A stretch of 53,419 bases of DNA from Acidobacteriota bacterium (GTDB taxonomy: Bacteria; Acidobacteriota; JAAYUB01; JAMOQF01), in the NCBI GenBank assembly GCA_027064125.1, contig JAMOQF010000080.1, positions 1 to 53,419 on the forward strand. The letters run 5' to 3'. The notes under the pieces were generated by a model. It ran no database searches. It was not told where the DNA came from and was given only the letters and a program-made list of their open reading frames with translations. This document shows, piece after piece, positions 6,121-45,166 of the stretch. Every line of letters begins with the position of its first letter. Position 1 is the first letter of the stretch. A program made the position numbers and the translations under genes.

Positions 6121-7143
6121 TTGATTTTAAAAGTAGAAAAATTTTTAAAAAATTATGTGGATAGATTTGGGGTTATATCTTCCAATATCTTTCCCATTCC
6201 AATAGAAAATCCCATCTTTGAGAAGTTTGAGTATTCCTATGATAAGGGTTATCTGGACGGACTAAACTGGTTTAGTAAAAATTTAGACATAATGAGATTT
6301 CCCGCTAAATATTTTAAAGAATTTAAATCCATTGTTTTTTTCTTCTTTAGTTATTTTGATAGCACTGTAAGTCATAATTTCTCAAATTTGCCAAAAATAT
6401 CTATATATGCCCAATATGAAGATTATCACTTAACAATTAGAAATTTTTTAAAGGATCTGGGAAGAGAACTAAGGAGAGTTTTTGGTATAAAAAGTGTGGG
6501 ATTTGTGGATAGTTCTCCATTTATGGAACGGGGATTTGCTTTTTTGTGTATGGAAGATGGTTTTTTAGGCAAAAATGGACTTTTTTATTTAAAGGGTAGA
6601 GGATCCTACTTTTTTATTGGAGAACTTCTTCTGGATATAGAATCCCCACGTAATTGGGGCGCTGAAAAACCTTTTCTAAGATATTGTAAAAATTGTAATA
6701 TCTGTGTTAAGAGTTGTCCCGTTGGGGCTATTGTGGAGCCTGGAATTGTGGACAGCAGAAAGTGTATTTCATATCACACAATTGAAAACAGGGGGGTTAT
6801 CCCCAGGGAGATAGCCGTTAATTTAAATGGTTATATCTTTGGATGTGATATATGCCAGCAGGTTTGTCCTTTAAATAGGATTAATGGGAGTATTTTTAAG
6901 GGATTTACTCGTGTAAAGGAAATAGAGAAATTCGATCTTGATTGGTTTTTAGGCCTTTCTAAAAATAGATATGAGAAAATATTTAAGAAAAGTGCTTTAA
7001 GTAGGGCAAATTACTATCAAATTTTGAGAAATATTTTTATACTTGCGGAAACGGATTATATCGATGGATGTTTTGCAAAGAAAATTTATGATAAATTTGG
7101 ACACAGAAAGGAAATTTATGAACAATTGAAGGAATTAAAATGA
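6121..7143 (+). CDS. queG: Epoxyqueuosine reductase (tRNA queuosine biosynthesis)
   Basis: Two ferredoxin-type clusters are present (CKNCNICVKSCP and CDICQQVCP), plus a QueG-like N-terminal region. The start codon at 6121 is TTG, so the start is somewhat uncertain. Confidence 0.8.
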   Translation: MILKVEKFLKNYVDRFGVISSNIFPIPIENPIFEKFEYSYDKGYLDGLNWFSKNLDIMRFPAKYFKEFKSIVFFFFSYFDSTVSHNFSNLPKISIYAQYEDYHLTIRNFLKDLGRELRRVFGIKSVGFVDSSPFMERGFAFLCMEDGFLGKNGLFYLKGRGSYFFIGELLLDIESPRNWGAEKPFLRYCKNCNICVKSCPVGAIVEPGIVDSRKCISYHTIENRGVIPREIAVNLNGYIFGCDICQQVCPLNRINGSIFKGFTRVKEIEKFDLDWFLGLSKNRYEKIFKKSALSRANYYQILRNIFILAETDYIDGCFAKKIYDKFGHRKEIYEQLKELK

Positions 7144-7871
7144 GAAAATTTTCCTTTTTGCATAAGGGAGTGCTTTTAAAGGGAAAGGTAATTTTTATTT
7201 TTCTTTTTATTTTATCTTTTCTACAAATGTTGTTATTTATAAAGTTTATCCCTGAAAAATATGGTTTCTTTTACCTATTTTTTTCCATTTTTTTGCCCAT
7301 TATCACGTTATTTGTACTGTTTCTTTTTCGATTTATAAGTAAGGTGGAGTTGGGGAGTGATTACCTGGACTATAAAATGGTTGAGTGTGGCAGAATGGTA
7401 AAGGAGCATCCTCAATTTGAAATAGATTTTTCATCTCCAAATAAATTTTTTTTTATCTTAAGACGTTATAGAAATAGATATGGTTACAGGAAGAACCTCA
7501 CTATTCAAATTTTTATTTCACAAGGTGGCAAAAAAATTATTTTTGAATATCCCTTTTCAATCCTTAGAGATAAAACTTCTTTAAAAGAAAAAAACTTTGT
7601 TGGAGAAAAATTAAGAACTTTGGGAGCAGTCTCCAATGCATATTTAGATTTTACATATAGAAAAACTTCATTTTTGGTTCTATCCCTTTTTTGTGATTAT
7701 ACGGGAATTATTATTAAAAATAGGGAGAGAAGTTTATCTATCCCAGAGGTTATAAGTATAATAAAAAATTTTGAAAGATTAATGGAATACAACGATTTAC
7801 AGGTTCATATTGAGGCATTTAGAAATAGGGAGATAAATTTCAGGGAATTATTTAATAGGTGGAAGGAATAG
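7140..7871 (+). CDS. Hypothetical membrane protein
   Basis: An ATGA overlap with the queG stop suggests translational coupling. Two N-terminal hydrophobic helices are present and no motif is recognisable. Confidence 0.55.
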   Translation: MRKFSFLHKGVLLKGKVIFIFLFILSFLQMLLFIKFIPEKYGFFYLFFSIFLPIITLFVLFLFRFISKVELGSDYLDYKMVECGRMVKEHPQFEIDFSSPNKFFFILRRYRNRYGYRKNLTIQIFISQGGKKIIFEYPFSILRDKTSLKEKNFVGEKLRTLGAVSNAYLDFTYRKTSFLVLSLFCDYTGIIIKNRERSLSIPEVISIIKNFERLMEYNDLQVHIEAFRNREINFRELFNRWKE

Positions 7872-7886
7872 TATGTTTTTTCTCTG

Positions 7887-7915
7887 TTGACAAAATGGAG
7901 TAAAAATGGTAAAAA
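7887..7915 (+). promoter_or_regulatory. Putative sigma-70 promoter for tRNA-Arg
   Basis: TTGACA (7887-7892), a 17-nt spacer and TAAAAA (7910-7915) lie about 17 nt upstream of the tRNA 5' end. Confidence 0.3.
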
Positions 7916-7931
7916 GTTTGTTCAATATTTT

Positions 7932-8005
7932 GCGCCTGTAGCTCAACAGGATAGAGCATCGGATTCCTAATCCGGGGGCTGTGGGTTCGAGTCCCGCCAG
8001 GCGCA
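7932..8005 (+). tRNA. tRNA-Arg (anticodon CCT)
   Basis: It folds by hand into a cloverleaf. The acceptor GCGCCTG pairs with CAGGCGC, and the D arm is GCTC/GAGC. The anticodon stem is TCGGA/TCCGG with loop TTCCTAA (anticodon CCT). The T arm is GTGGG-TTCGAGT-CCCGC and the discriminator is A. CCA is not encoded and a T-run follows. Confidence 0.93.
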
Positions 8006-8032
8006 TTATTTTTTTTACAAAAGAGGTGTAGT

Positions 8033-8797
8033 GTGGGAAGAACAAAATTAACCAGAAAAGAGATTAAAAAGGCTGATCCCGTAACTGAATTTTTAGATGA
8101 TATTGTTGAATTTTATAAAGAAAATCAAAAGATGGTTGTTTTTGGAATTGCTGGTATTATCATTCTTGTGGCTTTAGTTACTGTAGGTACTACCATATAT
8201 AAAAACAACCTGAAAAAAAGGTCCATAGCCCTTTATGAAGCGTTAAAGAATGTGGATGGTGTGGTTAATAGTTCGGGTAAGGCAACCATTCCGGGACAGA
8301 AGGTCTTTAAAAGCGATAAAGAGAAATATGAGGCTGAGTATAAAGCTTTTAAATCTGTGTATGATAAATATTCCTCTTCAACTGAGGGTAAGATAGCTCT
8401 CTATTTTATGGCAGATGCCATGTATCATCTTGGAAAGAGCAAAGATGCCCTCCATATGCTTTCAAAAATAGATCTTGATTTTGATTCCTATATAGGGAGT
8501 TATTATAATTTTCAAATTGCGGAACTTTATAGGGCAATTGGTGAATATGACAAGGCTATGGAAATTTACAACAAATTGTTGCAGACATCTGTTCAAATAC
8601 CCGAAGATACAATTAGGTATAGTAAAGTGTTGTGTTTAAGGGATATGGGTAAGGAAATGGAGGAGTACAGGGAACTTAAAAAATTTAATGAAGATCTGAT
8701 AAAAGAGTCTCAAGAGACGGGGAATTCCCCTTATTATTTAACTCTGATAAGGGTTAGGTATCAATTATTGGATGCAATTTATGGAGAGAGAAAATAA
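8033..8797 (+). CDS. Membrane-anchored TPR-like protein (YfgM-like architecture)
   Basis: A GTG start is preceded by AAGAGGTG. One N-terminal TM helix is followed by helical-repeat sequence. The position upstream of yceD-rpmF is consistent with this call. Confidence 0.55.
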   Translation: MGRTKLTRKEIKKADPVTEFLDDIVEFYKENQKMVVFGIAGIIILVALVTVGTTIYKNNLKKRSIALYEALKNVDGVVNSSGKATIPGQKVFKSDKEKYEAEYKAFKSVYDKYSSSTEGKIALYFMADAMYHLGKSKDALHMLSKIDLDFDSYIGSYYNFQIAELYRAIGEYDKAMEIYNKLLQTSVQIPEDTIRYSKVLCLRDMGKEMEEYRELKKFNEDLIKESQETGNSPYYLTLIRVRYQLLDAIYGERK

Positions 8798-9318
8798 TGA
8801 AGGTCAATTTTGAAAAATTAAAAGAAGGGAGAAATAGTCTAACTTTTGATATCCCTTCTAAGGATGTGGCCTTTGATTATAAGGGGTATAAATTAAACGG
8901 AAATTGGCACATAAATGCCGATTTTTTTAAAAATAGTAGGGGAGAAATATCACTTATTGGGGATCTGGAAGGGAAAATTACTTTAATATGTGACAGGTGT
9001 TTGAAGGAATTTGAGAGAAAGGTTTTTTTGAAGTTTGAATACTTTTTTGTGCCGTTTGAAGAGGTGGAGGTCAAAGAGGAAGGAGATTTAAATGATGGTG
9101 TAGTTGAAACCTTTTATAGAGATAATTTCGTGGAAATGGAGGATATTCTGAGTGAACAGGTAATACTCAGTTTACCGGATAAGGTGTTGTGTGATGAGAG
9201 TTGCAGGGGTATCTTAAAAGAAGATGGAAGTCCTTATATTGAGGAAGAAGGTGAAGAAAAACCTCTTGATAGTAGATTGCTACCTCTTCTGGAGATAAAA
9301 AAAAGATTAAAAAAATAA
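8797..9318 (+). CDS. yceD: YceD/DUF177 family protein (large-subunit rRNA accumulation protein)
   Basis: CDRC and CDESCRG cysteine motifs and an acidic C-terminus are present. The synteny immediately upstream of rpmF-plsX is canonical. A TAATG overlap links it to the upstream gene. Confidence 0.8.
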   Translation: MKVNFEKLKEGRNSLTFDIPSKDVAFDYKGYKLNGNWHINADFFKNSRGEISLIGDLEGKITLICDRCLKEFERKVFLKFEYFFVPFEEVEVKEEGDLNDGVVETFYRDNFVEMEDILSEQVILSLPDKVLCDESCRGILKEDGSPYIEEEGEEKPLDSRLLPLLEIKKRLKK

Positions 9319-9336: not shown

Positions 9337-9528
9337 ATGGCTCAACCTAAAAGGAGACATTCACACGCAAGGAGCAGAAAGAGAAGAGCACATTATCATC
9401 TCTTTGAAAAGAGTCTTTCTGTGTGTCCCAATTGTAAAGAACTAAAGTTACCCCATAGGGTTTGTCCCAATTGCTTTACTTATAAGGGAAAAGTAGTTAT
9501 TGAAATAAAAGAAAAAGAAGAAAAATAA
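9337..9528 (+). CDS. rpmF: 50S ribosomal protein L32
   Basis: The N-terminus MAQPKRRHSHARSRKRRAH is typical of L32. A CPNC...CPNC zinc ribbon and an AAGGAGA RBS are present. Confidence 0.95.
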   Translation: MAQPKRRHSHARSRKRRAHYHLFEKSLSVCPNCKELKLPHRVCPNCFTYKGKVVIEIKEKEEK

Positions 9529-9535
9529 TTTTTTT

Positions 9536-10576
9536 GTGAAGATGGGTGAAAAACAGGTAAAAATTGTACTTGATCTAATGGGAAGTGATAATTTTCCCAT
9601 ACCTGAACTTGAAGGGGTAAGGAGTGCCTTAAAGGAGGAAAAAGATCTCTTTGTCTACCTTGTGGGAAAAAGAGAAATCTATGAAAAATATAGGGACTTT
9701 TTTAAAAATGATCAGATAGAATTTGTGGAGGCAGAAGAACATATTACCATGAATGAAAGTCCCATAGCCGCCATTAGAAAGAAGAAGAAATCTTCTATAA
9801 GAATAGGCCTTTCTCTCATCAAGAAGGGAAAGGCACATGGTTTTGTTTCTGCTGGTAATACCGGTGCCATCATGGCTTTGTCAAAACTCTTGCTTGGGAT
9901 TGTTGAAGGTGTTGATAGGCCTGCTCTTGCCACAGCTGTTCCCAGTATAAAGGGGAGTACCATAATTTTGGATGTGGGAGCAAATGTGGAGTGTAAACCC
10001 ATTCATCTTGAGCAGTTTGCCATAATGGGGAGTATCTATTCTGAGATAATCTTTGGAATTTCCAATCCCCGGGTGGGCTTACTAAATATTGGAGAGGAAG
10101 AGATAAAGGGTAATGATTTAATGAAAGATGTTCATAAGGCCTTAAGTGTTTCTTCTCTAAATTTTGTTGGAAATGTTGAGGGAAAGGATGTTTACACAGG
10201 TGATGTGGATGTTGTGGTGTGTGATGGATTTACTGGAAATGTTGCCTTAAAGATTAGTGAGGGTGTTATTTCTGCTTTAATGTATTTATTAAAAAAGGAA
10301 ATAAATTCCCATTTTACTACCAAAATAGGTGCTCTTTTGATCAGGAAGGCTTTTAAAAATTTAAAGAAGGATATAGATTATTCTGAGTATGGGGGGGCTC
10401 CTCTCCTTGGCATTAAATATCCAGTTATTATCTGTCATGGAAGATCGAATGACAATGCCATAAAGAATGGATTGAAATTTTGTAAACTTTTGTACGAAAG
10501 GGAAATTCCTATGAAAATAGAGAATAAGATAAAGGAATTTATGAATAAAATTGAAAGTGTAAAGGAGTTGTCATGA
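9536..10576 (+). CDS. plsX: Phosphate acyltransferase PlsX
   Basis: The PlsX-family sequence includes GFVSAGNTGA and VVCDGFTGNVALK, and the rpmF-plsX synteny is classical. The start could be GTG at 9536 or ATG at 9542. Confidence 0.92.
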   Translation: MKMGEKQVKIVLDLMGSDNFPIPELEGVRSALKEEKDLFVYLVGKREIYEKYRDFFKNDQIEFVEAEEHITMNESPIAAIRKKKKSSIRIGLSLIKKGKAHGFVSAGNTGAIMALSKLLLGIVEGVDRPALATAVPSIKGSTIILDVGANVECKPIHLEQFAIMGSIYSEIIFGISNPRVGLLNIGEEEIKGNDLMKDVHKALSVSSLNFVGNVEGKDVYTGDVDVVVCDGFTGNVALKISEGVISALMYLLKKEINSHFTTKIGALLIRKAFKNLKKDIDYSEYGGAPLLGIKYPVIICHGRSNDNAIKNGLKFCKLLYEREIPMKIENKIKEFMNKIESVKELS

Positions 10577-11748
10577 AAACAATAATTGATTACTTTCTCA
10601 CGGAAGAACAAAAAGAAATAAAGGAACTTGTGAGAAGAATTGCAGAGGAGCAAATTGTCCCTGTTCGTGCAGAACTCGATGAAAAGGAAGAGTTTCCATG
10701 GGAAATAATTAAAATTCTTGCAGAAGCAGGATTATTTGGAATATATATTCCCGAAGAGTATGGTGGATTTGGTGGAGGTATCTTCGAGTTGGCTCTTGTT
10801 ACAGAGGAATTAAGTAGGGCCTGTGGGGCAGTTGCAGTTAGCTATGCTGCAAGTGGTTTAGGTGCTTATCCAATATTGATAATGGGAAATGAAGAACAGA
10901 AGAAAAAATATTTACCTCAGATAGCAAGTGGGGAAAAATTGGCAGCTTTTTGCCTGACTGAAAGTAGTGCTGGCTCAGATGTCTTTGGTATAAGGACCAC
11001 CGCTGTAAGAAAGGGAGATTACTATTACATAAATGGTACCAAGCAGTGGATAACAAATGGTGGTGTGGCAGAGATTTTCACTGTTATTGCCCTTACCGAT
11101 AAAAAGAGAGGTGGTAGAGGTGCCACTGCATTTATTGTGGAAAAAGATTTTCCCGGTGTGAGGGTTGGTAAAAAGGAGAAAAAATTGGGGATAAGGGCTT
11201 CTTCTACCACAGAGGTTATTTTTGAAGATTGTAAGGTACCTGCTGAAAATGTTCTTGGCAGAGAAGGCCTTGGAATAATAGCGGTTTTGAAGACCTTTGA
11301 TTATACAAGACCTGGAGTTGCTGCTCAGGCTGTGGGAATTGCCCAGGGTGCCTATGAGTATGCTCTTCAATATGCACATCAGAGACGCCAATTTGGAAAA
11401 CCAATTTCCTCTTTTCAGGCAGTTAGTCACATGCTTGCAGATATGGCAACGCAGATTGAAGCAGCAAGAAGCCTTGTGTATAATGTCGCTAAAATCATAG
11501 ATTCAGGGGAGAAAAAATTCTCTCACTATTCGGCCATGACAAAGGTTCTTGCTTCAGATGTTGCCATGAAGGTTACAACTGATGCAATACAGGTGCTTGG
11601 TGGTTATGGATATATGAAAGATTATCCACTTGAAAAGATGTTCAGGGACGCTAAAATAACTCAGATTTATGAAGGGACGAACCAGATACAGAGAAATGTT
11701 ATTGCAGCGGAACTAATAAAAATGGTCGTTCAACAAGGAAAGAAGTAG
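10573..11748 (+). CDS. Acyl-CoA dehydrogenase (short-chain/butyryl-CoA dehydrogenase-like flavoprotein)
   Basis: The full ACAD architecture is present, including CLTESSAGSD, QWITNG and the C-terminal catalytic-Glu motif IYEGTNQIQ. An ATGA overlap links it to the plsX stop. Confidence 0.9.
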   Translation: MKTIIDYFLTEEQKEIKELVRRIAEEQIVPVRAELDEKEEFPWEIIKILAEAGLFGIYIPEEYGGFGGGIFELALVTEELSRACGAVAVSYAASGLGAYPILIMGNEEQKKKYLPQIASGEKLAAFCLTESSAGSDVFGIRTTAVRKGDYYYINGTKQWITNGGVAEIFTVIALTDKKRGGRGATAFIVEKDFPGVRVGKKEKKLGIRASSTTEVIFEDCKVPAENVLGREGLGIIAVLKTFDYTRPGVAAQAVGIAQGAYEYALQYAHQRRQFGKPISSFQAVSHMLADMATQIEAARSLVYNVAKIIDSGEKKFSHYSAMTKVLASDVAMKVTTDAIQVLGGYGYMKDYPLEKMFRDAKITQIYEGTNQIQRNVIAAELIKMVVQQGKK

Positions 11749-11759
11749 AGGAGTTTAAA

Positions 11760-12707
11760 ATGGGTAAACTGGCCTTTGTCTTTCCAGGGCAGGCCTCCCA
11801 ATATAGTGGGATGGGAAAAGCCCTGTGTGAAAAATATTCTGTTGCCGCTTCTATTTTTAAAAAGGCTAATAATGTTCTTCCCTTTTCCATAAGTGATTTG
11901 TGCTTTAATGGCCCTGAAGAGGAATTAAAACTCACAGAAAAGACGCAGCCCGCCATTTTAACTGTTAGTGTTGCTGCCTATAGGGTGCTTGAGAATATGG
12001 GAATAAAGCCAGATTATGTAGCAGGCCACAGTTTAGGTGAGTATTCAGCCGTGGTGGCTGCTGGTGGTATAAAATTTGACGATGCGGTTTTGATTGTTCA
12101 TAAAAGAGGGAAATTTATGCAGGAAGCGGTAAATGTTGGTGTTGGATCCATGGCTGCACTTCTTGGTGGTAATCTTGAGGATATAAAGAAGATGTGTGAA
12201 GAGGTTAGGGGAAGTCATGTTTTAATGATGGCTAACATTAATTGCCCCGGTCAGGTAGTTATTTCAGGTCATAAGGAAGCAGTGGACATGGCAATAGCAA
12301 ATGCTCCAAAAATTGGGGTTAAGAAAGCAGTTATTTTACCTGTAAGTGCTCCTTTCCATTGTGATTTAATGAAACCTGCACAGGAAAAATTGAAGGTGGA
12401 ATTGAACAGGATAAATATTAAGGATCTAAAAATTCCCCTTGTTGCAAATTATGATGCAGAAGTCACTATTTCAAGTGAAGAGGTCAGGGAGAAACTGATA
12501 AAACAGGTTTCTTCTCCTGTATTGTGGCAGGACTGTGTGGAAAGACTGATTGCAGAGGGGGTGAATGTCTTTGTGGAAGTGGGACCTAAAAAAGTTTTAA
12601 GTGGAATGATTAAGAAAATTGACAGAAGTGTTAAAATATATCATGTGGAAACACCGGAAGAGGTTGAAGAATTTGCAAAAATTTATAAAGAACTTAAGAG
12701 AGGTTAA
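11760..12707 (+). CDS. fabD: Malonyl-CoA:ACP transacylase
   Basis: The motifs FPGQASQ and GHSLGEYSA (active-site Ser) are present, and the length is 315 aa. Confidence 0.93.
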   Translation: MGKLAFVFPGQASQYSGMGKALCEKYSVAASIFKKANNVLPFSISDLCFNGPEEELKLTEKTQPAILTVSVAAYRVLENMGIKPDYVAGHSLGEYSAVVAAGGIKFDDAVLIVHKRGKFMQEAVNVGVGSMAALLGGNLEDIKKMCEEVRGSHVLMMANINCPGQVVISGHKEAVDMAIANAPKIGVKKAVILPVSAPFHCDLMKPAQEKLKVELNRINIKDLKIPLVANYDAEVTISSEEVREKLIKQVSSPVLWQDCVERLIAEGVNVFVEVGPKKVLSGMIKKIDRSVKIYHVETPEEVEEFAKIYKELKRG

Positions 12708-12709
12708 TT

Positions 12710-13453
12710 ATGTTTGATGTTAAAGATAGAGTGGCAATAGTTACGGGAGGAAGTAGAGGGATAGGTGCGGCAATAGTAAAAGTCTTTCTAAATAGTGGAG
12801 CAAAGGTGGCGGTTTGTGCAAGAAATTCTGAAAAGGGAGAGGCCTTTGTTGAGAGTTTAAATCTGCCTGAAGATAGGGTTAAATTTTTTCAGGTGGATGT
12901 TTCCTCTTTTGAAAGTGTTAAAAAATGTTTTGAGGAGATTATCTCACATTTTGGTGAGGTAAATATATTGGTAAATAATGCAGGTATAACCATTGACAAA
13001 CTTTTTCTCCGTATGAAAGAAGAAGATTGGGATAAGGTGCTAAATGTGAATTTGAAAGGAGCATTTTATTTTTCCAAACTTGTGGTCCCCCATTTTATAA
13101 AGAAAAGATGGGGCAGGATTATAAATATGACTTCAGTTGTTGGTCTGACTGGAAATCCCGGTCAGGCAAATTATTGTGCTTCTAAGGCTGGAATAATAGG
13201 TTTTACCAAATCTTTGGCTAAGGAACTTGCTTCGAGGAATATAACTGTTAATGCTGTTGCCCCCGGATACATTGAGACGGATATGACAAAAGATTTACCA
13301 GATAAGGCGAAAGAGGAAATGCTAAAAAACATACCTTTAAGAAGAGTTGGGAGGGGAGAGGATGTTGCATATGGAGTTTTGTTTCTCTCTTCCCATGAGG
13401 CTGGTTATATAACGGGGCAGGTATTAAATATTAATGGTGGAATGTATATGTAA
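12710..13453 (+). CDS. fabG: 3-oxoacyl-ACP reductase
   Basis: SDR motifs TGGSRGIG, NNAG and Y-x3-K (YCASKAG) are present, and the position between fabD and acpP fits. Confidence 0.92.
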   Translation: MFDVKDRVAIVTGGSRGIGAAIVKVFLNSGAKVAVCARNSEKGEAFVESLNLPEDRVKFFQVDVSSFESVKKCFEEIISHFGEVNILVNNAGITIDKLFLRMKEEDWDKVLNVNLKGAFYFSKLVVPHFIKKRWGRIINMTSVVGLTGNPGQANYCASKAGIIGFTKSLAKELASRNITVNAVAPGYIETDMTKDLPDKAKEEMLKNIPLRRVGRGEDVAYGVLFLSSHEAGYITGQVLNINGGMYM

Positions 13454-13474
13454 AATTTTTTTATGGAGGAAGAT

Positions 13475-13723
13475 ATGAACTTTGAAGAAATTGAAAAAAA
13501 GGTAAAAGCAATAATTGTTGAACAACTTGGTGTTTCTGAAGATGAGGTGGTCCCTGATGCCAACATAATTGATGATCTTGGAGCAGATTCACTTGATACT
13601 GTTGAATTGGTTATGGCTTTTGAGGAAGAATTTGGAATTGAAATTCCGGAAGATGATACTGAGAAAATCAGAACAGTCAAAGATGCTATAGAATACATCA
13701 AGGAAAAGGTTGGAGATGAATAG
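13475..13723 (+). CDS. acpP: Acyl carrier protein
   Basis: The phosphopantetheine attachment motif [12 protein letters not shown] is present. I prefer ATG 13475 because GGAGGA lies 5 nt upstream. The ORF is also open from ATG 13463. Confidence 0.93.
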
Positions 13724-14981
13724 GAAAAGTGAAACTCTGAAAAGAAGAAGGGTAGTTGTAACCGGGGTGGGGATTGTATGTTCTGTAGGTGTTGGGGTTG
13801 AGGAGCCCTGGAAAAACATTTTAAATGGTGTTTCGGGTATAGATTACATCACCCTTTTTGATGCTTCAGAATTTCCAGTTAAGTTTGCGGCAGAGGTTAA
13901 AGATTTTAATCCACTTGACTTTGTTGATAGAAAGGAAGCCAAAAGACTTGATAGATTTTTACACTTTGCAATGGCGGCATCTCACTTCGCAGTTTCAATG
14001 AGTGGGATAGATTTTGAAAGGACTGATAGAGAGAGGGTTGGGGTTGAAATAGGTTCAGGAATAGGTGGATTTAGCACCATTGAGAGGGAACATGAGAAAT
14101 TGCTTAAAATGGGCCCCCGCAGGATTTCTCCTTTTTTTATTCCCTCTGCCATAGTGAATATGGCTTCTGGTATAGTTTCCATTAAATATGGTGCTAAGGG
14201 ACCAAATGTTGCAACGTGTACTGCCTGTTCTACATCCACTCATGCTGTTGGTGATGCCTATAGAATAATAGAGAGAGGTGATGCTGATGTAATGATAAGT
14301 GGTGGAAGTGAAGCAGCAATTACGCCCATGGGTATAGGTGGATTTGCTTCCATGAGAGCCCTTTCCACCAGAAATGATGCCCCTCATAAGGCAAGTAGAC
14401 CCTTTGAAAAAAATAGGGATGGATTTGTGGTGGGAGAAGGTGCAGGTATTTTGATACTTGAGGAGTTGGAACACGCCTTAAATAGAGGTGCAAACATAAT
14501 AGCTGAAATAGTTGGCTATGGCTTAACTGGAGATGCTTTTCACATTACGGCTCCTGCGGAAGATGGTGATGGTGCTTACAGAGCAATGAAGATGGCAATT
14601 GAAAGTGCTGGTATAGAGCCTGAAGATATTGATTATATTAATGCCCATGGAACTTCGACTCCATACAATGATAAAATTGAGACAAAGGCAATTAAGAGGT
14701 TGATGGGTGAACATGCCAAAAAGGTGGTGATCAGTTCTACAAAATCCATGGTTGGGCATCTTCTTGGTGGAGCGGGAGCACTTGAGGCTGCTTTTACTGT
14801 GCTTTCCATTAGAGATCAGATTGTTCCACCCACCATAAATTATGAGGAACCGGATCCGGAATGTGACCTTGACTACTGTCCCAATAGCGCAAGAGAGGTT
14901 GAGATAAACTATGCAATGAGTAATTCCTTTGGTTTTGGTGGAACAAATGGCGTGTTAGTTTTTAAAAAGTTTGAAGAATGA
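13710..14981 (+). CDS. fabF: 3-oxoacyl-ACP synthase II
   Basis: This is a KAS II family sequence with the active-site Cys context [12 protein letters not shown], His motifs ([16 protein letters not shown]) and a C-terminal NSFGFGGTN. The start may be 13710 or 13716. Confidence 0.93.
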
Positions 14982-14992
14982 TTGGAGGAAAA

Positions 14993-15748
14993 ATGAAAAT
15001 AGGTGTATGTGTTAAGAGGGTTCCTGATACTGAAACAAGGCCAAAGATAGCTTCTGATGAAAAGAATTTTGACCTCTCAGATGCTAAATTTGTTATAAGC
15101 CCTTATGATGAATTTGGAATTGAGGAAGCACTAAAATTGAAAGAAGCAAATGGTGGTGAGGTGGTGTTAATCAGCCTTGATTCATCAGGGGATGTTACTG
15201 TTATTAGAAATGGCCTTGCCATGGGTGCAGATAGGGCAATTATTGTAGAGGGAGATGGTGAGAGGGATCCCTATGAAACTGCAGTAATTTTAAGTAATGT
15301 TTTAAAAGAGGAAAATTTTGACATTGTGTTTTTTGGAAAACAGGGTGTGGGACATGATTACCAACAGGTTCCATCCATTTTAGCTGAAATTATGAATCTT
15401 CCCCTTATTTCAGTTGTTGTGGAGTTAAAGATAGATGGAGATAAGGTTGAAGCAGTTAGAGAAATTGAAGGCGGTGAAGAGGTTGTTGAGGCAAAGTTGC
15501 CCGTTCTTATTTCTGCGCAGAAGGGATTAAATGTTCCAAGGTATCCATCACTAAGAGGAATTATGGCTGCCAAGAAAAAACCTATAGATAAGAAGAGTCC
15601 AGAATTTACTGCTGAAAAACTTAGTTGGGAAGTTGAAAAAGTGGAACTTCCTCCTCCAAGAAAGGCAGGTAAAATTGTTGAAGGAGAAGTTGAGGAGCAG
15701 GTAAAGGAAATAATTTCTTTTTTGAGTGATGAAGTTAAAATAATTTAG
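14993..15748 (+). CDS. etfB: Electron transfer flavoprotein, beta (small) subunit
   Basis: The N-terminus MKIGVCVKRVPD is typical of EtfB, and GGAGGA lies upstream of ATG 14993. The ORF is open from 14978, overlapping the fabF stop. Confidence 0.88.
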   Translation: MKIGVCVKRVPDTETRPKIASDEKNFDLSDAKFVISPYDEFGIEEALKLKEANGGEVVLISLDSSGDVTVIRNGLAMGADRAIIVEGDGERDPYETAVILSNVLKEENFDIVFFGKQGVGHDYQQVPSILAEIMNLPLISVVVELKIDGDKVEAVREIEGGEEVVEAKLPVLISAQKGLNVPRYPSLRGIMAAKKKPIDKKSPEFTAEKLSWEVEKVELPPPRKAGKIVEGEVEEQVKEIISFLSDEVKII

Positions 15749-15757
15749 GAGTAAAAA

Positions 15758-16726
15758 ATGGCAGTATATGTATTAATAGAAAATAGAAATCATAATATCA
15801 AAAATCCATCTTTTGAGTCCCTTTCTGCAGCAAAAAAACTCGCGGAAAAGTTTGGTACCCAGTGTGTGGCAATACTCTTTGGTGATGCTGAGAACATATC
15901 TGATCTCGGAAAATATGGGGCTGACAAGGTCCTGAAGATTAAAACAGGTCAGGAACTTGTTAGTAGAGATGCTGTTATTGAAATTGTAAGTGATATCGTA
16001 AAGAATGATGGGGATTTTAAAGCCCTATTTGCATCTGCTACTTCTTTTGGAAAGGATGTGTTACCTGGTATTTCTGCTAAATTTGAAAAGGGTATTGCTC
16101 AGGATATCACAGAAATTTTTTATGACAATGATCCCATTTTGATTAAGAGACCTGTTTTTGCTGGTAAGGCCTTTGAGATCATTAAGTTTAACGATTTTCC
16201 ATATTTTATTACCACAAGACCCAATGTTTTTAAAAAGGCAGAGTACAATTCAGATGGAAGTGTTGAGGAGGTTGAAAAATCAGTTTCTCCAGATTCATTG
16301 AAAACTGTGTTGAAGGAAGTCAAAAGTACTGGTTCTGGTCAAATTGAATTGACTGAAGCAAATGTAATAGTTTCAGGTGGAAGAGGAATGAAGGGCCCTG
16401 AAAATTTTAAGATAATTGAAGAACTTGCCTCTCTTTTAAATGCCGCTGTTGGTGCCTCCCGTGCTGCAGTTGATGAGGGTTGGATAGACCATCAACATCA
16501 GGTGGGACAAACTGGTAAAACCGTATCTCCAACAGTTTATATTGCGTGTGGGATTTCAGGTGCTATACAACATCTTGCTGGGATGTCTTCTTCTAAATAT
16601 ATAATTGCAATTAATAAAGATCCTGATGCCCCCATATTCAAGGTTGCGGACCTTGGAATTGTTGGGGATCTGTTTAAAGTTGTTCCCGCTTTGACTGAAG
16701 AGTTAAAAAAGGTTTTAAATAAATAA
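15758..16726 (+). CDS. etfA: Electron transfer flavoprotein, alpha (large) subunit
   Basis: The C-terminal FAD-binding region matches EtfA: VSGGRGM, GASRAAVDEGW, QVGQTGKTVSP and YIACGISGAIQHLAGM. Confidence 0.9.
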   Translation: MAVYVLIENRNHNIKNPSFESLSAAKKLAEKFGTQCVAILFGDAENISDLGKYGADKVLKIKTGQELVSRDAVIEIVSDIVKNDGDFKALFASATSFGKDVLPGISAKFEKGIAQDITEIFYDNDPILIKRPVFAGKAFEIIKFNDFPYFITTRPNVFKKAEYNSDGSVEEVEKSVSPDSLKTVLKEVKSTGSGQIELTEANVIVSGGRGMKGPENFKIIEELASLLNAAVGASRAAVDEGWIDHQHQVGQTGKTVSPTVYIACGISGAIQHLAGMSSSKYIIAINKDPDAPIFKVADLGIVGDLFKVVPALTEELKKVLNK

Positions 16727-16729
16727 TTA

Positions 16730-17485
16730 ATGGCTTTTATAGAATTAATAGATGTTCATAAATCCTTCGGAGACAATAAAGTGCTCCGGGGGATTAATTT
16801 ATCCATAGAAAAAGGGGAGAGCCTTGTCATCTTAGGGAAAAGTGGAATAGGTAAGTCTGTTACCCTCCTTGTTTTAACTCGACTTCTTCCACTTGATAGG
16901 GGAAAGGTTATAATTAATGGAATTGATACCACAGATCTTCCAGAAGATAAGTTAATACCCATTAGGAAGAAGATATCTTATGTATTTCAGTCGGGAGCCC
17001 TTTTTGATTCACTTACCGTGTATGAAAATATAGCTTTTCCTATGATTGGAGAGGGATATGATGAAGATGAGATTGATAAAAGGGTTTTTGATATAATGGA
17101 CTTATTGAATATTTCGGAATTCTGGGATTTATATCCCGATGAAATAAGTGGTGGGGTTAAAAAAATTGTTTCAATAGGTAGGGCTCTTGCCGCAAATCCC
17201 GATTGCATTCTTTATGATGAACCAACTACAGGAATCGATCCCTATGCCGCAAAAAAGTTAAGCGAAGTTATAAGGAGGATCAATATTGATATGGGAATTA
17301 CTACTATTCTTGTGACCCACGATATGAGGTGTGCAAAAATAGTTGCCGATAAAATTGCGTTTTTACATGAAGGGGTGATCTATTTCCATGGTTCCTTTGG
17401 AGAATTTGTGGAAAGTGATTTGCCTGTTCTTGAGGAATTCAAAGGTTCGCTCCCATATATGGCTAAATATTTGAAGGGGGGTTAA
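16730..17485 (+). CDS. ABC transporter ATP-binding protein (MlaF-like, no permease adjacent)
   Basis: It has Walker A GKSGIGKS, signature ISGGVKK, Walker B ILYDEPTTGIDP and H-loop VTHDM. Confidence 0.85.
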   Translation: MAFIELIDVHKSFGDNKVLRGINLSIEKGESLVILGKSGIGKSVTLLVLTRLLPLDRGKVIINGIDTTDLPEDKLIPIRKKISYVFQSGALFDSLTVYENIAFPMIGEGYDEDEIDKRVFDIMDLLNISEFWDLYPDEISGGVKKIVSIGRALAANPDCILYDEPTTGIDPYAAKKLSEVIRRINIDMGITTILVTHDMRCAKIVADKIAFLHEGVIYFHGSFGEFVESDLPVLEEFKGSLPYMAKYLKGG

Positions 17486-41955: not shown

Positions 41956-43149
41956 TCAGAAGTTTTTCCTGATAAACTCTTCTATGAGGTCATAACTTTT
42001 TTCAAGAGTTTTCATATCTGGAAGGGTTACGACCCTGAAATGTTTGGTACCCTCTTTTTGACCAAATCCACTTCCATGTACCACAAGCACCCCGGTTTCA
42101 TGTACAAGTCTTTTGGCAAACTCAAAGTCAGAAATGGGAATATCTATTGAAGGAAATATGTAAAATGCTCCTTTGGGCTTTATTGCTCTAATTCCTTTAA
42201 TTGAATTCAACCTTTTCAGAGAATATTCAGTTCTTTCTTTAAGGGTTTCTATGGCTTTCTTCAGATGTGTTTGATCACCTTCAAGGGCAGTTTTTATGGC
42301 GTATTGTTCAGGATGGTTTGCGCATATCCTTGCCCTTACGAGTTTTTGTAAGGCTGGTAGAAAATCTTCCAATTTTTCCTTATCTCCACTTACAATGCAC
42401 CACCCCATCCTCCATCCGGGGGCTATATAGGATTTTGAGAGCCCATTCAGGGTGATGACACAGACCTCTTCATCCAGAGAGGCGGTGGAGTAGTGAATTG
42501 TTTCCTCTTCAAGTATTAATTTGTCATATATTTCGTCTGAGAATATTACGATATCGTTTTTCTTAGCAATTTCAATTATATGGAGCAATATTTCTTTAGA
42601 GTAGACAGATCCTGTTGGATTATTTGGGTTAATTAAAACAATGGCCCTGGTATTTTTATCTATTTTTGATTCTATATCACTTACATCAGGTTGCCAGTGG
42701 TTTTCTTCATCAAGATAGTAGGGCCTTTCTTCCGCCCCCAGTTTTTTTAAAACAGCGCTATATAGCGGATAACTTGGATACGGGATGAGGACATTTTCCC
42801 CCTCATTTACAAGGGCAGTCATCGCAAGTTCTATGGCTTCTGAGGCACCTGTTGCAGTAAAGATGTAATTTACACTTTTTATCCCCTTTCTAAGGGCTTC
42901 TTTTTTTATCGCAGAGATTGCTTCCTCTATTCCATCGGAAGGAGAATACCCATTTTTCCCATTTAGCATTGCATTATAGACTGCTTCGATTAGATGTCTT
43001 GGCGTTTCAAAGTCGTATTGGAGTGGATCTCCTATGTTAAGGGGAAGAATTTTCTTTCCCTTTTCCCTTGCAATGTTTGCTTCCAAGACTATATCTCTTA
43101 TGGCATATGTAATTTCAAAGGTCCTTTTTGCTGCTTTTATTTTTGACAT
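41956..43149 (-). CDS. Class I/II PLP-dependent aminotransferase (alanine/aspartate aminotransferase-like)
   Basis: The PLP-lysine context LNGLSKSYIAPGWRMGW and the NPNNPTG motif are present. The length is 397 aa. Confidence 0.85.
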   Translation of the reverse strand: MSKIKAAKRTFEITYAIRDIVLEANIAREKGKKILPLNIGDPLQYDFETPRHLIEAVYNAMLNGKNGYSPSDGIEEAISAIKKEALRKGIKSVNYIFTATGASEAIELAMTALVNEGENVLIPYPSYPLYSAVLKKLGAEERPYYLDEENHWQPDVSDIESKIDKNTRAIVLINPNNPTGSVYSKEILLHIIEIAKKNDIVIFSDEIYDKLILEEETIHYSTASLDEEVCVITLNGLSKSYIAPGWRMGWCIVSGDKEKLEDFLPALQKLVRARICANHPEQYAIKTALEGDQTHLKKAIETLKERTEYSLKRLNSIKGIRAIKPKGAFYIFPSIDIPISDFEFAKRLVHETGVLVVHGSGFGQKEGTKHFRVVTLPDMKTLEKSYDLIEEFIRKNF

Positions 43150-43172
43150 AAAGACTCCTTTAAAAAAAATTT

Positions 43173-44072
43173 TTAACTTGTTTTCATTGCAAAGGCAATG
43201 GAGAGAAATTTTGTCTCTTCAGAATCTGCTCTTGATGTAAGTACGATTGGTCTTTTTGCCCCCACAATAATTCCGGCTGTTTTAAAACCTCCCAGATAAC
43301 TTAAAACCTTATAAAAGCAGTTCCCAGTTTCAATTTCCGGAGCTATGGCAATATCTGCATCTCCACCAACTTCACTTTTGATTCCCTTTACCTCACAGGA
43401 CTTTTTTGAAAAGGCGTTGTCCACAGCAAGTGGTCCATCTATTATACATCCCTTTATCTGTCCCCTTTTGTTCATCATTGTGATTATGGCTGCATCTCCT
43501 GTGCAGGGCATATTTTCAGGATTTACCTTTTCAACTGCTGCAAGAAGTGCAACCTTTGGTATATCTATCCCCAATTTGTGTGCCGCTTCAACACTGTTTT
43601 TTATGATATCTATTTTTTGATTTAAATTGGGAGCAATATTCATTGCAGCATCACTCATGAGAATTAATTTGTGATATGCGGGAACTTCAAATGCTGCAAG
43701 ATGGGATAATAGCCTTTCTGTCCTGAACCCATTTTCTTTATCTAAAACTCCCTTTAAAAGGGTTGCAGTTGAACAGAGCCCCTTCATCAAGACATCTGCC
43801 TTTCCTTCTTTTACAAGAGAAATTGCTCTTTTTACCGATTCCCTTTCATCTTTTTCATCAACAATTTCAAATCTGTCCTTTTCTACATTTAAATTTCTTA
43901 ATATCTCTTCAATTTTTTCCCGTGGCCCCACAAGAATTCCATCTGCGATGTCTTCTTCTTTGGCCTTTAATAGGGCTTCGATTACATCCCTGTCGTGGGC
44001 ATATGCAACTGCAATTTTTTTTGTCTTGCTTCCCTTTACCTCTTTTATCAATTGGTCAAAGTTCCTAATCAT
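43173..44072 (-). CDS. ptb: Phosphate butyryltransferase (phosphate acyltransferase family)
   Basis: This ~300-aa PTA/PTB-family sequence sits immediately downstream of butyrate kinase. Its RBS lies within the end of buk. Confidence 0.82.
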   Translation of the reverse strand: MIRNFDQLIKEVKGSKTKKIAVAYAHDRDVIEALLKAKEEDIADGILVGPREKIEEILRNLNVEKDRFEIVDEKDERESVKRAISLVKEGKADVLMKGLCSTATLLKGVLDKENGFRTERLLSHLAAFEVPAYHKLILMSDAAMNIAPNLNQKIDIIKNSVEAAHKLGIDIPKVALLAAVEKVNPENMPCTGDAAIITMMNKRGQIKGCIIDGPLAVDNAFSKKSCEVKGIKSEVGGDADIAIAPEIETGNCFYKVLSYLGGFKTAGIIVGAKRPIVLTSRADSEETKFLSIAFAMKTS

Positions 44073-44074
44073 TC

Positions 44075-45166
44075 TTACCTCCAGAAGTAGCCATATATTT
44101 TTGGTCTCTCTTCACCTTTTAAAACCCTGAGTGCACCCTCCATAAGTGCCCTCATTTCTTCCTCTCCAGGATAAACCACCACCGGTGCAATAAATTTTAC
44201 CCTATTTATTATCCAGTTGACAAACATTTCATCGTAGGCGATACCTCCTGTGAGGATTATTCTATCCACCTCACCATTTACAACTGTTGCCATAGCACCT
44301 ATACACTTTGCCACCTGATATGCCATTGCCTCATAAATAAGTTGCCATTCTTTATTTCCCTTTTTAACCTCATCAGATACCTTTTTCATATTATTTGTGC
44401 CAAGGTAATCGACTATTCCACCTTTACCTTTTATCTTTTTTAAGACATATTCAAGGGTGTACCTTCCACTAAAGCACTCTCTTACCAAATCCCCCACAGG
44501 GAGAGTTCCTGATCTCTCAGGGGTAAAAGGGCCTTCACCATCAAGGGCGTTATTTACATCCACAACTCTTCCTTTTTTATGTATTCCTATTGAAATACCG
44601 CCTCCCATGTGTGCAACGATGAAATTGAAATCTTCATACTTTCCTCCGATTTCCTTTGCCACTTTTCTTGCAACTGCCTTGTGATTTAGAGCGTGGAAAA
44701 TACTTTTTCTTGGAAGGGCCTTTAGACCTGATAAACGCGCAATTTCTTCCATTTCATCAACTACTACAGGGTCAACAATATAGCATGGTATACCATGGGA
44801 TTTTGCAAGTTCGTGGGCAAGGATTGCCCCTAAATTTGAGGCATGTGCCCCCATAACACATTTTCTTAGATGTTCAAGCATTGCTTCATTTACAAGGTAT
44901 GTTCCACCTGGTACAGGCATTGTAAGTCCACCTCTTGCCACTATCGTATCCAGTTTACTGATATCTATATTCCTTTCCTTTAAAAAAGAGGCGATGCTTC
45001 TATGTCTGAAGCAAAACTGATCACAAATTCTTGTAAACTGATTCAATTCCTCGGTTGAGTGCCTGATGGTTTCTGAAAAGATTTCCTTTTCATTTTCATA
45101 GTAGGCCAATTTTGTAGAAGTGGAACCGGGATTTATAACCAGAATGCGATATATTTTTTTCCCCAT
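44075..45166 (-). CDS. buk: Butyrate (branched-chain acyl) kinase
   Basis: The N-terminus ILVINPGSTSTKLA is typical of ASKHA acetate/butyrate kinases. The internal motif AHMGGGIS is present and the length is 363 aa. Confidence 0.9.
   Translation of the reverse strand: MGKKIYRILVINPGSTSTKLAYYENEKEIFSETIRHSTEELNQFTRICDQFCFRHRSIASFLKERNIDISKLDTIVARGGLTMPVPGGTYLVNEAMLEHLRKCVMGAHASNLGAILAHELAKSHGIPCYIVDPVVVDEMEEIARLSGLKALPRKSIFHALNHKAVARKVAKEIGGKYEDFNFIVAHMGGGISIGIHKKGRVVDVNNALDGEGPFTPERSGTLPVGDLVRECFSGRYTLEYVLKKIKGKGGIVDYLGTNNMKKVSDEVKKGNKEWQLIYEAMAYQVAKCIGAMATVVNGEVDRIILTGGIAYDEMFVNWIINRVKFIAPVVVYPGEEEMRALMEGALRVLKGEERPKIYGYFWR

Follow-up and report, generated by a model that had tools for sequence, protein, structure and literature searches.

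We analyzed a 53,419-nucleotide contig (JAMOQF010000080.1, hereafter 'the window') of a 2.58-Mb, 94%-complete metagenome-assembled genome from the Acidobacteriota (GCA_027064125.1), in which an acyl-CoA dehydrogenase (ACAD) gene and the genes for both subunits of an electron transfer flavoprotein (Etf) lie among genes for type II fatty acid synthesis (FAS-II). We tentatively interpret the ACAD and EtfBA as a flavin redox module tied to FAS-II – with an Etf-dependent enoyl-thioester (enoyl-acyl carrier protein, or enoyl-ACP) reductase, fed in this genome by the quinone pool, as its favored function. We argue for a role in fatty acid synthesis because the linkage between this ACAD clade and FAS-II spans phyla and gene orders and has outlived an exchange of the Etf itself.

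An ACAD and an Etf are encoded in a predicted fatty acid synthesis operon

The block of interest lies on the forward strand and starts with rpmF (9337-9528), a 63-amino acid open reading frame (ORF) for ribosomal protein L32 that is the customary gene 5′ of plsX-fab operons and has a homolog before plsX in all related loci. It continues with plsX (phosphate acyltransferase; 9536-10576; TIGR00182, 368.6 bits against a cut-off of 243.4), the ACAD gene (10573-11748), fabD (malonyl-CoA:ACP transacylase; 11760-12707; TIGR00128, 352 bits against 260.9), fabG (3-oxoacyl-ACP reductase; 12710-13453; TIGR01830, 337 bits against 297.75), acpP (acyl carrier protein; 13463-13723; NF002148, 120.6 bits, with an invariant DSL phosphopantetheine site), fabF (beta-ketoacyl-ACP synthase II; 13710-14981, with a probable ATG start at 13716; TIGR03150, 672 bits against 493.75), etfB (Etf small subunit; 14978-15748; PF01012) and etfA (Etf large subunit; 15758-16726; PF00766 and PF01012). 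All members of the canonical plsX-fabH-fabD-fabG-acpP-fabF operon thus score above their cut-offs here save fabH, which is located on contig C12.

These genes form a single tightly packed block that we predict to be an operon. An ATGA overlap joins plsX to the ACAD gene. The next three gaps measure 11, 2 and 9 nt, acpP and fabF overlap by 14 nt, fabF and etfB overlap by 4 nt (or are 11 nt apart), and spacings of 9 nt between the etf genes and 3 nt from etfA to an ABC-transporter ATPase gene complete the block. The two values at the fabF-etfB junction reflect two possible etfB starts. The ATG at 14993, which gives the 11-nt spacing, is preceded by GGAGGAAAA, so that a GGAGG lies ahead of it, and the corresponding MKI or MNI is the start of every homolog. 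A sequence scan found no terminator-like hairpin in any intergenic gap of the block, including those between the ACAD or etfBA and the fab genes. Promoter-like matches were uninformative (30 found against 29.3 expected from shuffled sequences). The gene order and tight packing described in an initial annotation of this DNA are therefore borne out, the etfB start that it favored is the better supported of the two, and a homolog search of the contig (C80) agrees with its statement that fabH, fabZ and enoyl-ACP reductase (ENR) genes are missing from the window.

The arrangement is conserved across Acidobacteriota and recurs in other phyla

The synteny proved to be deeply conserved among relatives. 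The order rpmF-plsX-ACAD-fabD-fabG-acpP-fabF-etfB-etfA is kept in all eight genomes examined from the same taxonomic order, whose loci are 77% identical in a genome search; for a genome of the same genus (G001), the ACAD lies on a 2.4-kb contig on which synteny is not visible. Five genomes from three other families of the phylum likewise combine the ACAD and Etf genes with fab genes, whether or not fabH or fabD belongs to the operon. Two of these families (G022, G031 and G039) have plsX-fabH-ACAD-fabD followed by the remaining genes through etfB-etfA, and the third (G034 and G016) has plsX-ACAD-fabG-acpP-fabF-etfB-etfA and no fabD. The arrangement is thus conserved in five acidobacterial families, far above chance.

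The co-occurrence of fabH and the ACAD gene in one operon in G022, G031 and G039 led us to reject the possibility that the ACAD replaces FabH. Since relatives have plsX-fabH-ACAD-fabD, the ACAD is better described as an insertion between fabH and fabD than as the occupant of the fabH slot that the initial annotation had proposed, fabH having been relocated in this order. The standalone fabH copy lies beside fbp on C12 (14903-15877; 381 bits).

We surveyed other phyla using an alignment of fab-linked ACADs as the query and one genome per species, annotating the flanks by tblastn. ACADs of the same clade (58-70% identity) were found within FAS-II operons of Omnitrophota, Nitrospirota, Thermodesulfobacteriota, Dehalococcoidia and further metagenome-assembled genomes. 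The ACAD-Etf trio follows fabF in Omnitrophota, lies between fabH and fabD in Nitrospirota, and lies between fabH or plsX and fabG in Desulfobulbaceae, Syntrophobacteraceae and other Thermodesulfobacteriota. On a 1.1-Mb Dehalococcoidia chromosome (CP070693.1), the ACAD gene is directly 5′ of rpmF-fabD-fabG-acpP, with no etf gene within the 17-kb locus and no match to FabI, FabK, FabL or FabV in the genome. These differing insertion points, one of them in place of fabD, argue for selection on the linkage between the ACAD and FAS-II. Thiolase, hbd and crotonase genes were linked in none of the approximately 45 fab-linked loci. Bare ACAD-etfB-etfA triads predominate in Firmicutes, Planctomycetota, Elusimicrobiota and Spirochaetota.

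Three other loci (L032 in G037, and L060 and L061 in Nitrospiraceae) encode ACADs of the clade (64% identity) and have no fab or etf gene within 8-9 kb; all four known ENR families went unmatched in G037.

The FAS-II-associated ACAD is related to butyryl-CoA dehydrogenase

The ACAD has the three-domain architecture of its family, with the N-terminal (PF02771, Acyl-CoA_dh_N), middle (PF02770, Acyl-CoA_dh_M) and C-terminal (PF00441, Acyl-CoA_dh_1) domains all above cut-offs. Its top solved relative is the Clostridioides difficile butyryl-CoA dehydrogenase Bcd (5OL2_C, 396 bits), and caffeyl-CoA reductase CarC scores 333 bits. The catalytic Glu367, within an IYEGT motif, is invariant together with Tyr366 and Gln252 in 11 fab-linked orthologs, and Tyr366-Glu367-Gly368 and Gln252 align with Tyr361/Glu362 and Gln248 of 5OL2_C – the Tyr/Gln pair of straight-chain enzymes. 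Among NCBIfam equivalogs no substrate-defined cut-off was reached; the top model was the acryloyl-CoA reductase AcrC (446 bits against a cut-off of 640). Scores against Bcd and short- and medium-chain ACADs (SCAD and MCAD) were 340-396 bits, compared with 224 bits for the carrier-protein dehydrogenase 4IRN and 114 bits for the MbtN model.

Phylogenetic analysis placed all fab- or Etf-linked ACADs in one clade (SH-aLRT support 99, 87 rows), with the other ACAD paralogs of the genome outside it. Fab-linked and bare forms are interleaved within an inner clade (75 rows, support 91). We refer to this group as the Bcd-like, Etf-coupled, FAS-II-associated clade.

The acidobacterial Etf is not of the bifurcating type

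The etfB and etfA genes encode the sole Etf pair found in the genome, and the determinants we inspected classify this Etf as non-bifurcating. A published comparison gives the EtfB 'zipper' hexad as DGDTAQ for 216 ETFs of the bifurcating type and as DDDxNQ for 449 of the canonical type (PMC8958531). The EtfB here has GHDYQQ, which differs from the bifurcating motif and also falls outside the canonical group-1 motif, with which it shares just the Asp at position three and the final Gln. Bifurcating ETFs always have Gly at position 123 (Acidaminococcus fermentans numbering), where canonical ETFs have a bulky residue (PMC12630350); the EtfB here has His. A Tyr and an Ala align at the Thr pair of the ADTLAT segment (T94/T97 of RpaETF), a pair whose replacement in the T94,97A variant leads to loss of the second FAD and binding of AMP (PMC8958531), and the C-terminal GSPT motif is absent. 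EtfA, at 322 amino acids, has no N-terminal ferredoxin (Fer4) domain.

These features are common to all 14 acidobacterial fab-linked Etfs, and contrast with those of the clade-linked Etfs of other phyla. The 34 EtfBs from non-acidobacterial ACAD-linked loci – setting aside one canonical-like EtfB from a beta-oxidation-type cluster (L127) – have a DG[DE]T[AG]Q hexad (DGDT[AG]Q in 33 of them) within a GKQA[IST]DGDTAQVGP segment, together with the ADT(L/W)AT Thr pair and the C-terminal GSPT motif. Their EtfAs are CarE-like proteins of about 397-400 amino acids with an N-terminal 2x[4Fe-4S] domain. Consistent with this division, the EtfB tree separates the acidobacterial fab-linked EtfBs and the L127 EtfB from the 34 bifurcating-type EtfBs (100/100 split, branch length 1.17). 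The best solved matches of EtfB are the canonical Paracoccus ETF-beta (1EFP_B, 133 bits) and 1EFV_B (117 bits), with bifurcating ones at no more than 102 bits; EtfA gave the opposite ranking, matching CarE (233 bits) and 5OL2_A (225 bits) above the human protein (209 bits).

Two of the 14 acidobacterial EtfBs, from the fabD-less family (L036 and L037), have Gly at the 123 position, with the rest of the bifurcating signature absent.

A bifurcating form of the Bcd/EtfAB complex invoked in the initial annotation is therefore not applicable here: hexad, Thr pair, GSPT motif and EtfB tree all read as non-bifurcating at the second-FAD site, and EtfA lacks the ferredoxin domain. Acidobacteriota have swapped the bifurcating-type Etf for a non-bifurcating one of a lineage linked to menaquinone through EMO/DUF224 proteins, an exchange newly described here. 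Because the acidobacterial ACADs stay inside the common ACAD clade, this exchange was non-orthologous, with the place in the fab operon kept.

A candidate menaquinone link and catabolic genes are encoded elsewhere in the genome

In Syntrophomonas wolfei, a DUF224 protein has been proposed to act as an EtfAB:menaquinone oxidoreductase (EMO) (PMC3582634). The present genome encodes a full-length, 657-amino acid EMO homolog on another contig (C139:6780-8753); its N-terminal part contains four hydrophobic segments, and the protein also has a Fer4 (4Fe-4S) dicluster and two CCG domains. It is thus unlinked to etfBA, which is followed by the ABC ATPase gene. Its comparator is the 680-amino acid Fer4 and CCG protein encoded after etfBA in the L127 cluster (504 bits, 42% identity), whose EtfB groups with the one here at 100/100 support. 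Elsewhere in the phylum the link is physical: G031 encodes rpmF-plsX-fabH-ACAD-fabD-fabG-acpP-fabF-etfB-etfA-EMO, with EMO 22 nt past etfA. EMO homologs are present in all 13 acidobacterial carriers of the clade ACAD that are at least 90% complete, and lie near other ACAD paralogs in G005 and G016. Consistent with menaquinone synthesis by the futalosine pathway, MqnA/D matches were found on C31 and C120; MenA (TIGR00751) was not found in the genome, and neither ETF-QO (PF05187) nor a FixC-type partner was found in this 94%-complete assembly.

The EMO gene is followed, with overlapping stop and start codons, by a gene for a 370-amino acid protein with DUF362 and 2x[4Fe-4S] domains (C139:6780-9855 for the pair).

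The genome also encodes fatty acid degradation. A complete beta-oxidation operon on C174 (23085-30333) comprises genes for an acyl-CoA synthetase (FadD), a fused FadB-like 3-hydroxyacyl-CoA dehydrogenase/enoyl-CoA hydratase, a thiolase and a 592-amino acid ACAD, and three further ACADs are encoded on C50, C40 and C178. Because no Etf of its own lies nearby, the C174 operon must rely on the Etf of the fab operon.

Known enoyl-ACP reductases are present in this genome but unevenly distributed among carriers

The canonical FAS-II genes absent from the window are found on other contigs. Besides the fabH on C12, fabZ lies on C3 among same-strand ORFs whose sizes alone suggest an outer-membrane/lipid-A cluster (bamA, skp, lpxA). 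FabL is encoded on C7 (357 bits against a cut-off of 328), and FabK-like genes are found on C7 (336 bits, below the cut-off of 453) and on C2. Since these genes exist elsewhere, the ACAD is not required as a FabH stand-in or as the sole ENR – a result that the initial annotation had itself named as one that would count against its proposals.

The FabK-like and FabL genes on C7 are directly adjacent, in that order (12984-14701; 6985-8705 of locus L010), and divergent from an ECF sigma factor gene. Conservation of the pair within the order extends to G001, G002, G003 and G009 and, with no FabL search behind it, probably to G008. It is odd for one operon to encode two types of ENR, and the FabK-like member could instead be a FabX-like dehydrogenase/isomerase.

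To our knowledge, the recognized ENRs are either of the SDR type (FabI, FabL and FabV) or of the FabK type. We searched for all four families in sixteen carriers from several phyla. FabI was convincing only in a Syntrophobacter genome (G041), FabL was above cut-off in five of the sixteen, strong FabK-like matches occurred in three Acidobacteriota, and the genomes matched by the FabV model (G014, G020, G023 and G053) were not among the sixteen. None of the four families was matched in carriers G039, G042 (the 1.1-Mb Dehalococcoidia chromosome), G043, G047 and G050, nor in G004 and G006. Weak NMO-like matches were all that was found in G022 (151 bits), G044 and G049; G046 had such a match together with a FabL-like match of 207 bits, below the cut-off. 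As for genomes with bare triads, one Bacillota and one Planctomycetales genome have fabF and no convincing ENR, and a spirochaete has FabV.

In an Acidobacteriota sample, FabI was present in 0 of 15 carriers and 13 of 25 non-carriers (p = 5e-4, with no correction for phylogeny). An independent Nitrospirota sample, in which carriers were defined by a match of at least 60% identity, fab-linkage was verified for G043 only and FabI alone was censused, gave 0 of 15 carriers and 21 of 26 non-carriers (p = 2e-7). Pooled across both phyla, FabI was found in 0 of 30 clade-ACAD carriers and 34 of 51 non-carriers. This pattern fits functional equivalence of the ACAD with FabI; a split between aerobes and anaerobes, with anaerobes using other or unrecognized ENRs, predicts the same. 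The suggestion in the initial annotation that the ACAD/EtfAB trio performs the enoyl reduction step thus gains comparative support from its linkage to fab genes in many phyla, its complementarity to FabI and the several carriers without any of the four ENR families, while the trio would not be the sole ENR in the present genome.

Proposed function of the ACAD/Etf module and alternatives

Enoyl reduction is the sole FAS-II step known to involve ACAD chemistry. The fabK gene of Firmicutes fab clusters lies between fabH or acpP and fabD, which we take to be the place where the ACAD sits. In the function we favor, the ACAD would run reductively, as Bcd and CarC do, and would act on ACP- rather than CoA-bound substrates. 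Electrons would pass from menaquinol to EMO, the putative membrane partner, then to Etf, the FAD of the ACAD and the enoyl thioester, with FabL and the FabK-like proteins serving as parallel ENRs. With potentials of -74 mV for menaquinol and about -10 mV for the enoyl thioester (PMC3582634), such a flow would be thermodynamically downhill. There is precedent in Fusobacterium nucleatum, in which a canonical ETF feeding Bcd in the reductive direction is documented (PMC12630350). In most anaerobic phyla, ACADs of the same clade are paired with a ferredoxin-fused, bifurcating-type Etf, which draws electrons from NADH. The more specific proposal – that the ACAD, the non-bifurcating Etf and the membrane EMO constitute a menaquinol-driven ENR, a respiratory chain-coupled variant of a fifth, flavin/Etf-based class that would be more common, in other anaerobic phyla, in an NADH/ferredoxin-bifurcating form – is possible but doubtful.

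Several observations weigh against an ENR function. We know of no ACAD that reduces enoyl-ACP. A known ENR, FabL, is already encoded in the genome alongside two FabK-like genes, and the Syntrophobacter genome holds both the trio and FabI. Genomes with none of the four ENR families are no more frequent among acidobacterial carriers (4 of 15) than among non-carriers (5 of 25), and the complementarity with FabI is confounded by phylogeny and by aerobic or anaerobic lifestyle. The ACAD is also approximately 72% identical to Firmicutes ACADs encoded in bare ACAD-etfBA triads apart from fab genes. As the only Etf in a genome with a beta-oxidation operon and four other ACADs, EtfBA has an obvious catabolic job. 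Finally, the Etf/EMO chain has been described in the oxidative direction only (PMC3582634).

The strongest alternative builds on these points. The trio could be a housekeeping catabolic module – the ACAD a short- or medium-chain, straight-chain dehydrogenase, EtfBA the general Etf that serves all five ACADs via EMO to menaquinone, and the place among fab genes a matter of history or of coordinated lipid turnover. The uniqueness of the Etf pair, the C174 operon and the ACADs on C50, C40 and C178 all accord with such a role, as do the presence of classical ENR candidates, the EMO genes near other ACAD paralogs in G005 and G016, and the membership of EtfB in the lineage that is linked to EMO in the L127 beta-oxidation cluster, as in S. 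wolfei. We nevertheless regard it as unlikely, albeit a serious contender. It leaves unexplained why a single ACAD clade occurs within FAS-II operons of several phyla at differing positions, and why a replaced Etf stays behind fabF in five acidobacterial families. By usual regulatory logic, cotranscription of a degradative dehydrogenase with fabD, fabG, fabF and acpP would make no sense, and the beta-oxidation operon of the genome owns a long ACAD.

The module could also run oxidatively within lipid synthesis, as an acyl-ACP (or acyl-CoA) dehydrogenase acting on a FAS-II intermediate or product – for example, supplying 2-enoyl-ACP to a FabX-like route of anaerobic unsaturated fatty acid synthesis or to some other lipid modification – with Etf, EMO and menaquinone as the electron sink. 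The Etf/EMO chain is known in this direction (PMC3582634), FabX is reported to back-oxidize acyl-ACP for unsaturated fatty acid synthesis (PMC8626469), and ACAD homologs acting on carrier-bound substrates exist, including the prolyl-ACP dehydrogenase 4IRN and proteins of the MbtN model. The ACAD scores far lower against these two than against Bcd, SCAD and MCAD, however, and no isomerase is linked to it. Moreover, trans-2-enoyl-ACP is already a FAS-II intermediate, and the partner in other phyla is a ferredoxin-fused, bifurcating-type Etf that is typical of reductive enzymes such as CarCDE. We consider an oxidative role improbable.

A supply of primers is less probable still. Here, enoyl-CoAs from amino acid or butyrate-type fermentation would be reduced to short or branched saturated acyl-CoAs with which FabH is primed, a scenario that takes up the second suggestion of the initial annotation and suits the Bcd-like ACAD with its straight-chain Tyr/Gln pair. 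The window does encode, as initially annotated, a buk-ptb-aminotransferase block on the minus strand (41956-45166), comprising an alanine aminotransferase-like protein (below cut-off), a phosphate butyryltransferase-like protein (396 bits against a cut-off of 399) and a butyrate kinase (562 bits). This block is, however, 25 kb away on the opposite strand, fabH is outside the fab operon of this genome, and none of the fab-linked loci carries a thiolase, hbd or crotonase gene. Lastly, a classical electron-bifurcating Bcd/EtfAB using NADH and ferredoxin, which the kinship of the ACAD with the bifurcating C. difficile Bcd and the slightly higher EtfA scores against CarE and C. difficile EtfA than against human ETF-alpha might suggest, is essentially excluded in this genome by the GHDYQQ hexad, the missing Thr pair and GSPT motif, the lack of Fer4 in EtfA and the position of EtfB across the 100/100 split from all bifurcating-type EtfBs.

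Genes flanking the predicted operon

The ABC-transporter ATPase gene past etfA (16730-17485, + strand; PF00005) is an orphan whose membership of the transcription unit is uncertain: it has no adjacent permease gene, and the gene after it is convergent. In six of the eight genomes of the same order, etfA has a homolog of it as its next gene, and Desulfobulbaceae-type loci (L079, L087 and L088) encode an ATPase 35% identical to it upstream of rpmF/plsX. On the other side of the operon, three ORFs 5′ of rpmF (7140-9318; 243, 254 and 173 amino acids) have no NCBIfam match at E <= 1e-20.

Implications for fatty acid synthesis

Enoyl-ACP reduction draws every round of FAS-II onward, and antibacterials prominently target it. 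If the favored function is correct, an ACAD/Etf-type reductase would represent a new enzyme class in a textbook pathway, would account for many anaerobes that have no recognizable ENR, and would couple lipid synthesis to the energetics of ferredoxin or quinones. Were the reductase menaquinol-driven, the last reduction of FAS-II would take its electrons from the quinone pool, or regain energy from that pool, and spare NAD(P)H. The acidobacterial variant amounts to a natural experiment, in which the Etf was swapped for a quinone-linked type with the fab-operon link kept; whatever the module does for fatty acid synthesis, electron bifurcation is not needed for it. Even if the trio is catabolic, placing the only Etf of a genome in a predicted transcript with fabF would be unusual regulation.

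Comparison with known systems

We found no paper describing an ACAD/Etf module in a fatty acid operon, and the general phenomenon appears to be unpublished. The nearest printed mention concerns such genes in Margulisbacteria and Saganbacteria, which were read as a Bcd/EtfAB complex (PMC6349859).

The reaction proposed for the ACAD is that of the SDR enzymes FabI, FabL and FabV and of FabK, which has FMN and an NMO fold (PMC9260719), and the ACAD is complementary to FabI in two phylum samples. Its ACAD fold, with FAD and an external Etf, is unrelated to theirs, and a 2022 review of ENRs names no ACAD, ETF or ferredoxin (PMC9260719). A precedent for the oxidative alternative is Helicobacter pylori FabX, a FAS-II flavoenzyme that dehydrogenates acyl-ACP. 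FabX is a relative of FabK, with FMN, a [4Fe-4S] cluster and an NMO fold, rather than of ACADs; it also acts as an isomerase and involves no Etf (PMC8626469).

The three-protein logic of an ACAD with a heterodimeric Etf is shared with Bcd-EtfAB of C. difficile (5OL2) and Acidaminococcus fermentans (4KPU, 4L1F) and with CarCDE of Acetobacterium woodii (6FAH). These enzymes physiologically reduce enoyl-CoA, and the fab-linked forms of other phyla carry the same bifurcating-type, CarE-like, Fer4-fused Etf. The acidobacterial Etf, in contrast, is neither of the bifurcating type nor equipped with a ferredoxin domain, four fab genes separate the ACAD gene from etfBA, and the context is FAS-II, with no thl, hbd, crt or caffeate genes.

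The Ldh-ETF-Bcd system of F. nucleatum illustrates that a non-bifurcating ETF can supply Bcd for enoyl-CoA reduction, and its Gly123 test types the EtfB here as non-bifurcating (PMC12630350). There, the cluster itself encodes the donor, a D-lactate dehydrogenase; here, no such donor is encoded and the context is lipid synthesis. The Bcd/EtfAB/DUF224 chain of S. wolfei matches in its non-bifurcating Etf lineage, its EMO and its menaquinone, for which the present genome has futalosine genes. That chain serves butyrate oxidation, whereas etfBA here lies in a predicted operon with fabD, fabG, fabF and acpP, and EMO is unlinked. Judged against all of these systems, the window is distinguished by a split arrangement that sets the ACAD apart from etfBA, and by a putatively quinone-linked, non-bifurcating Etf that is the only one of its genome.

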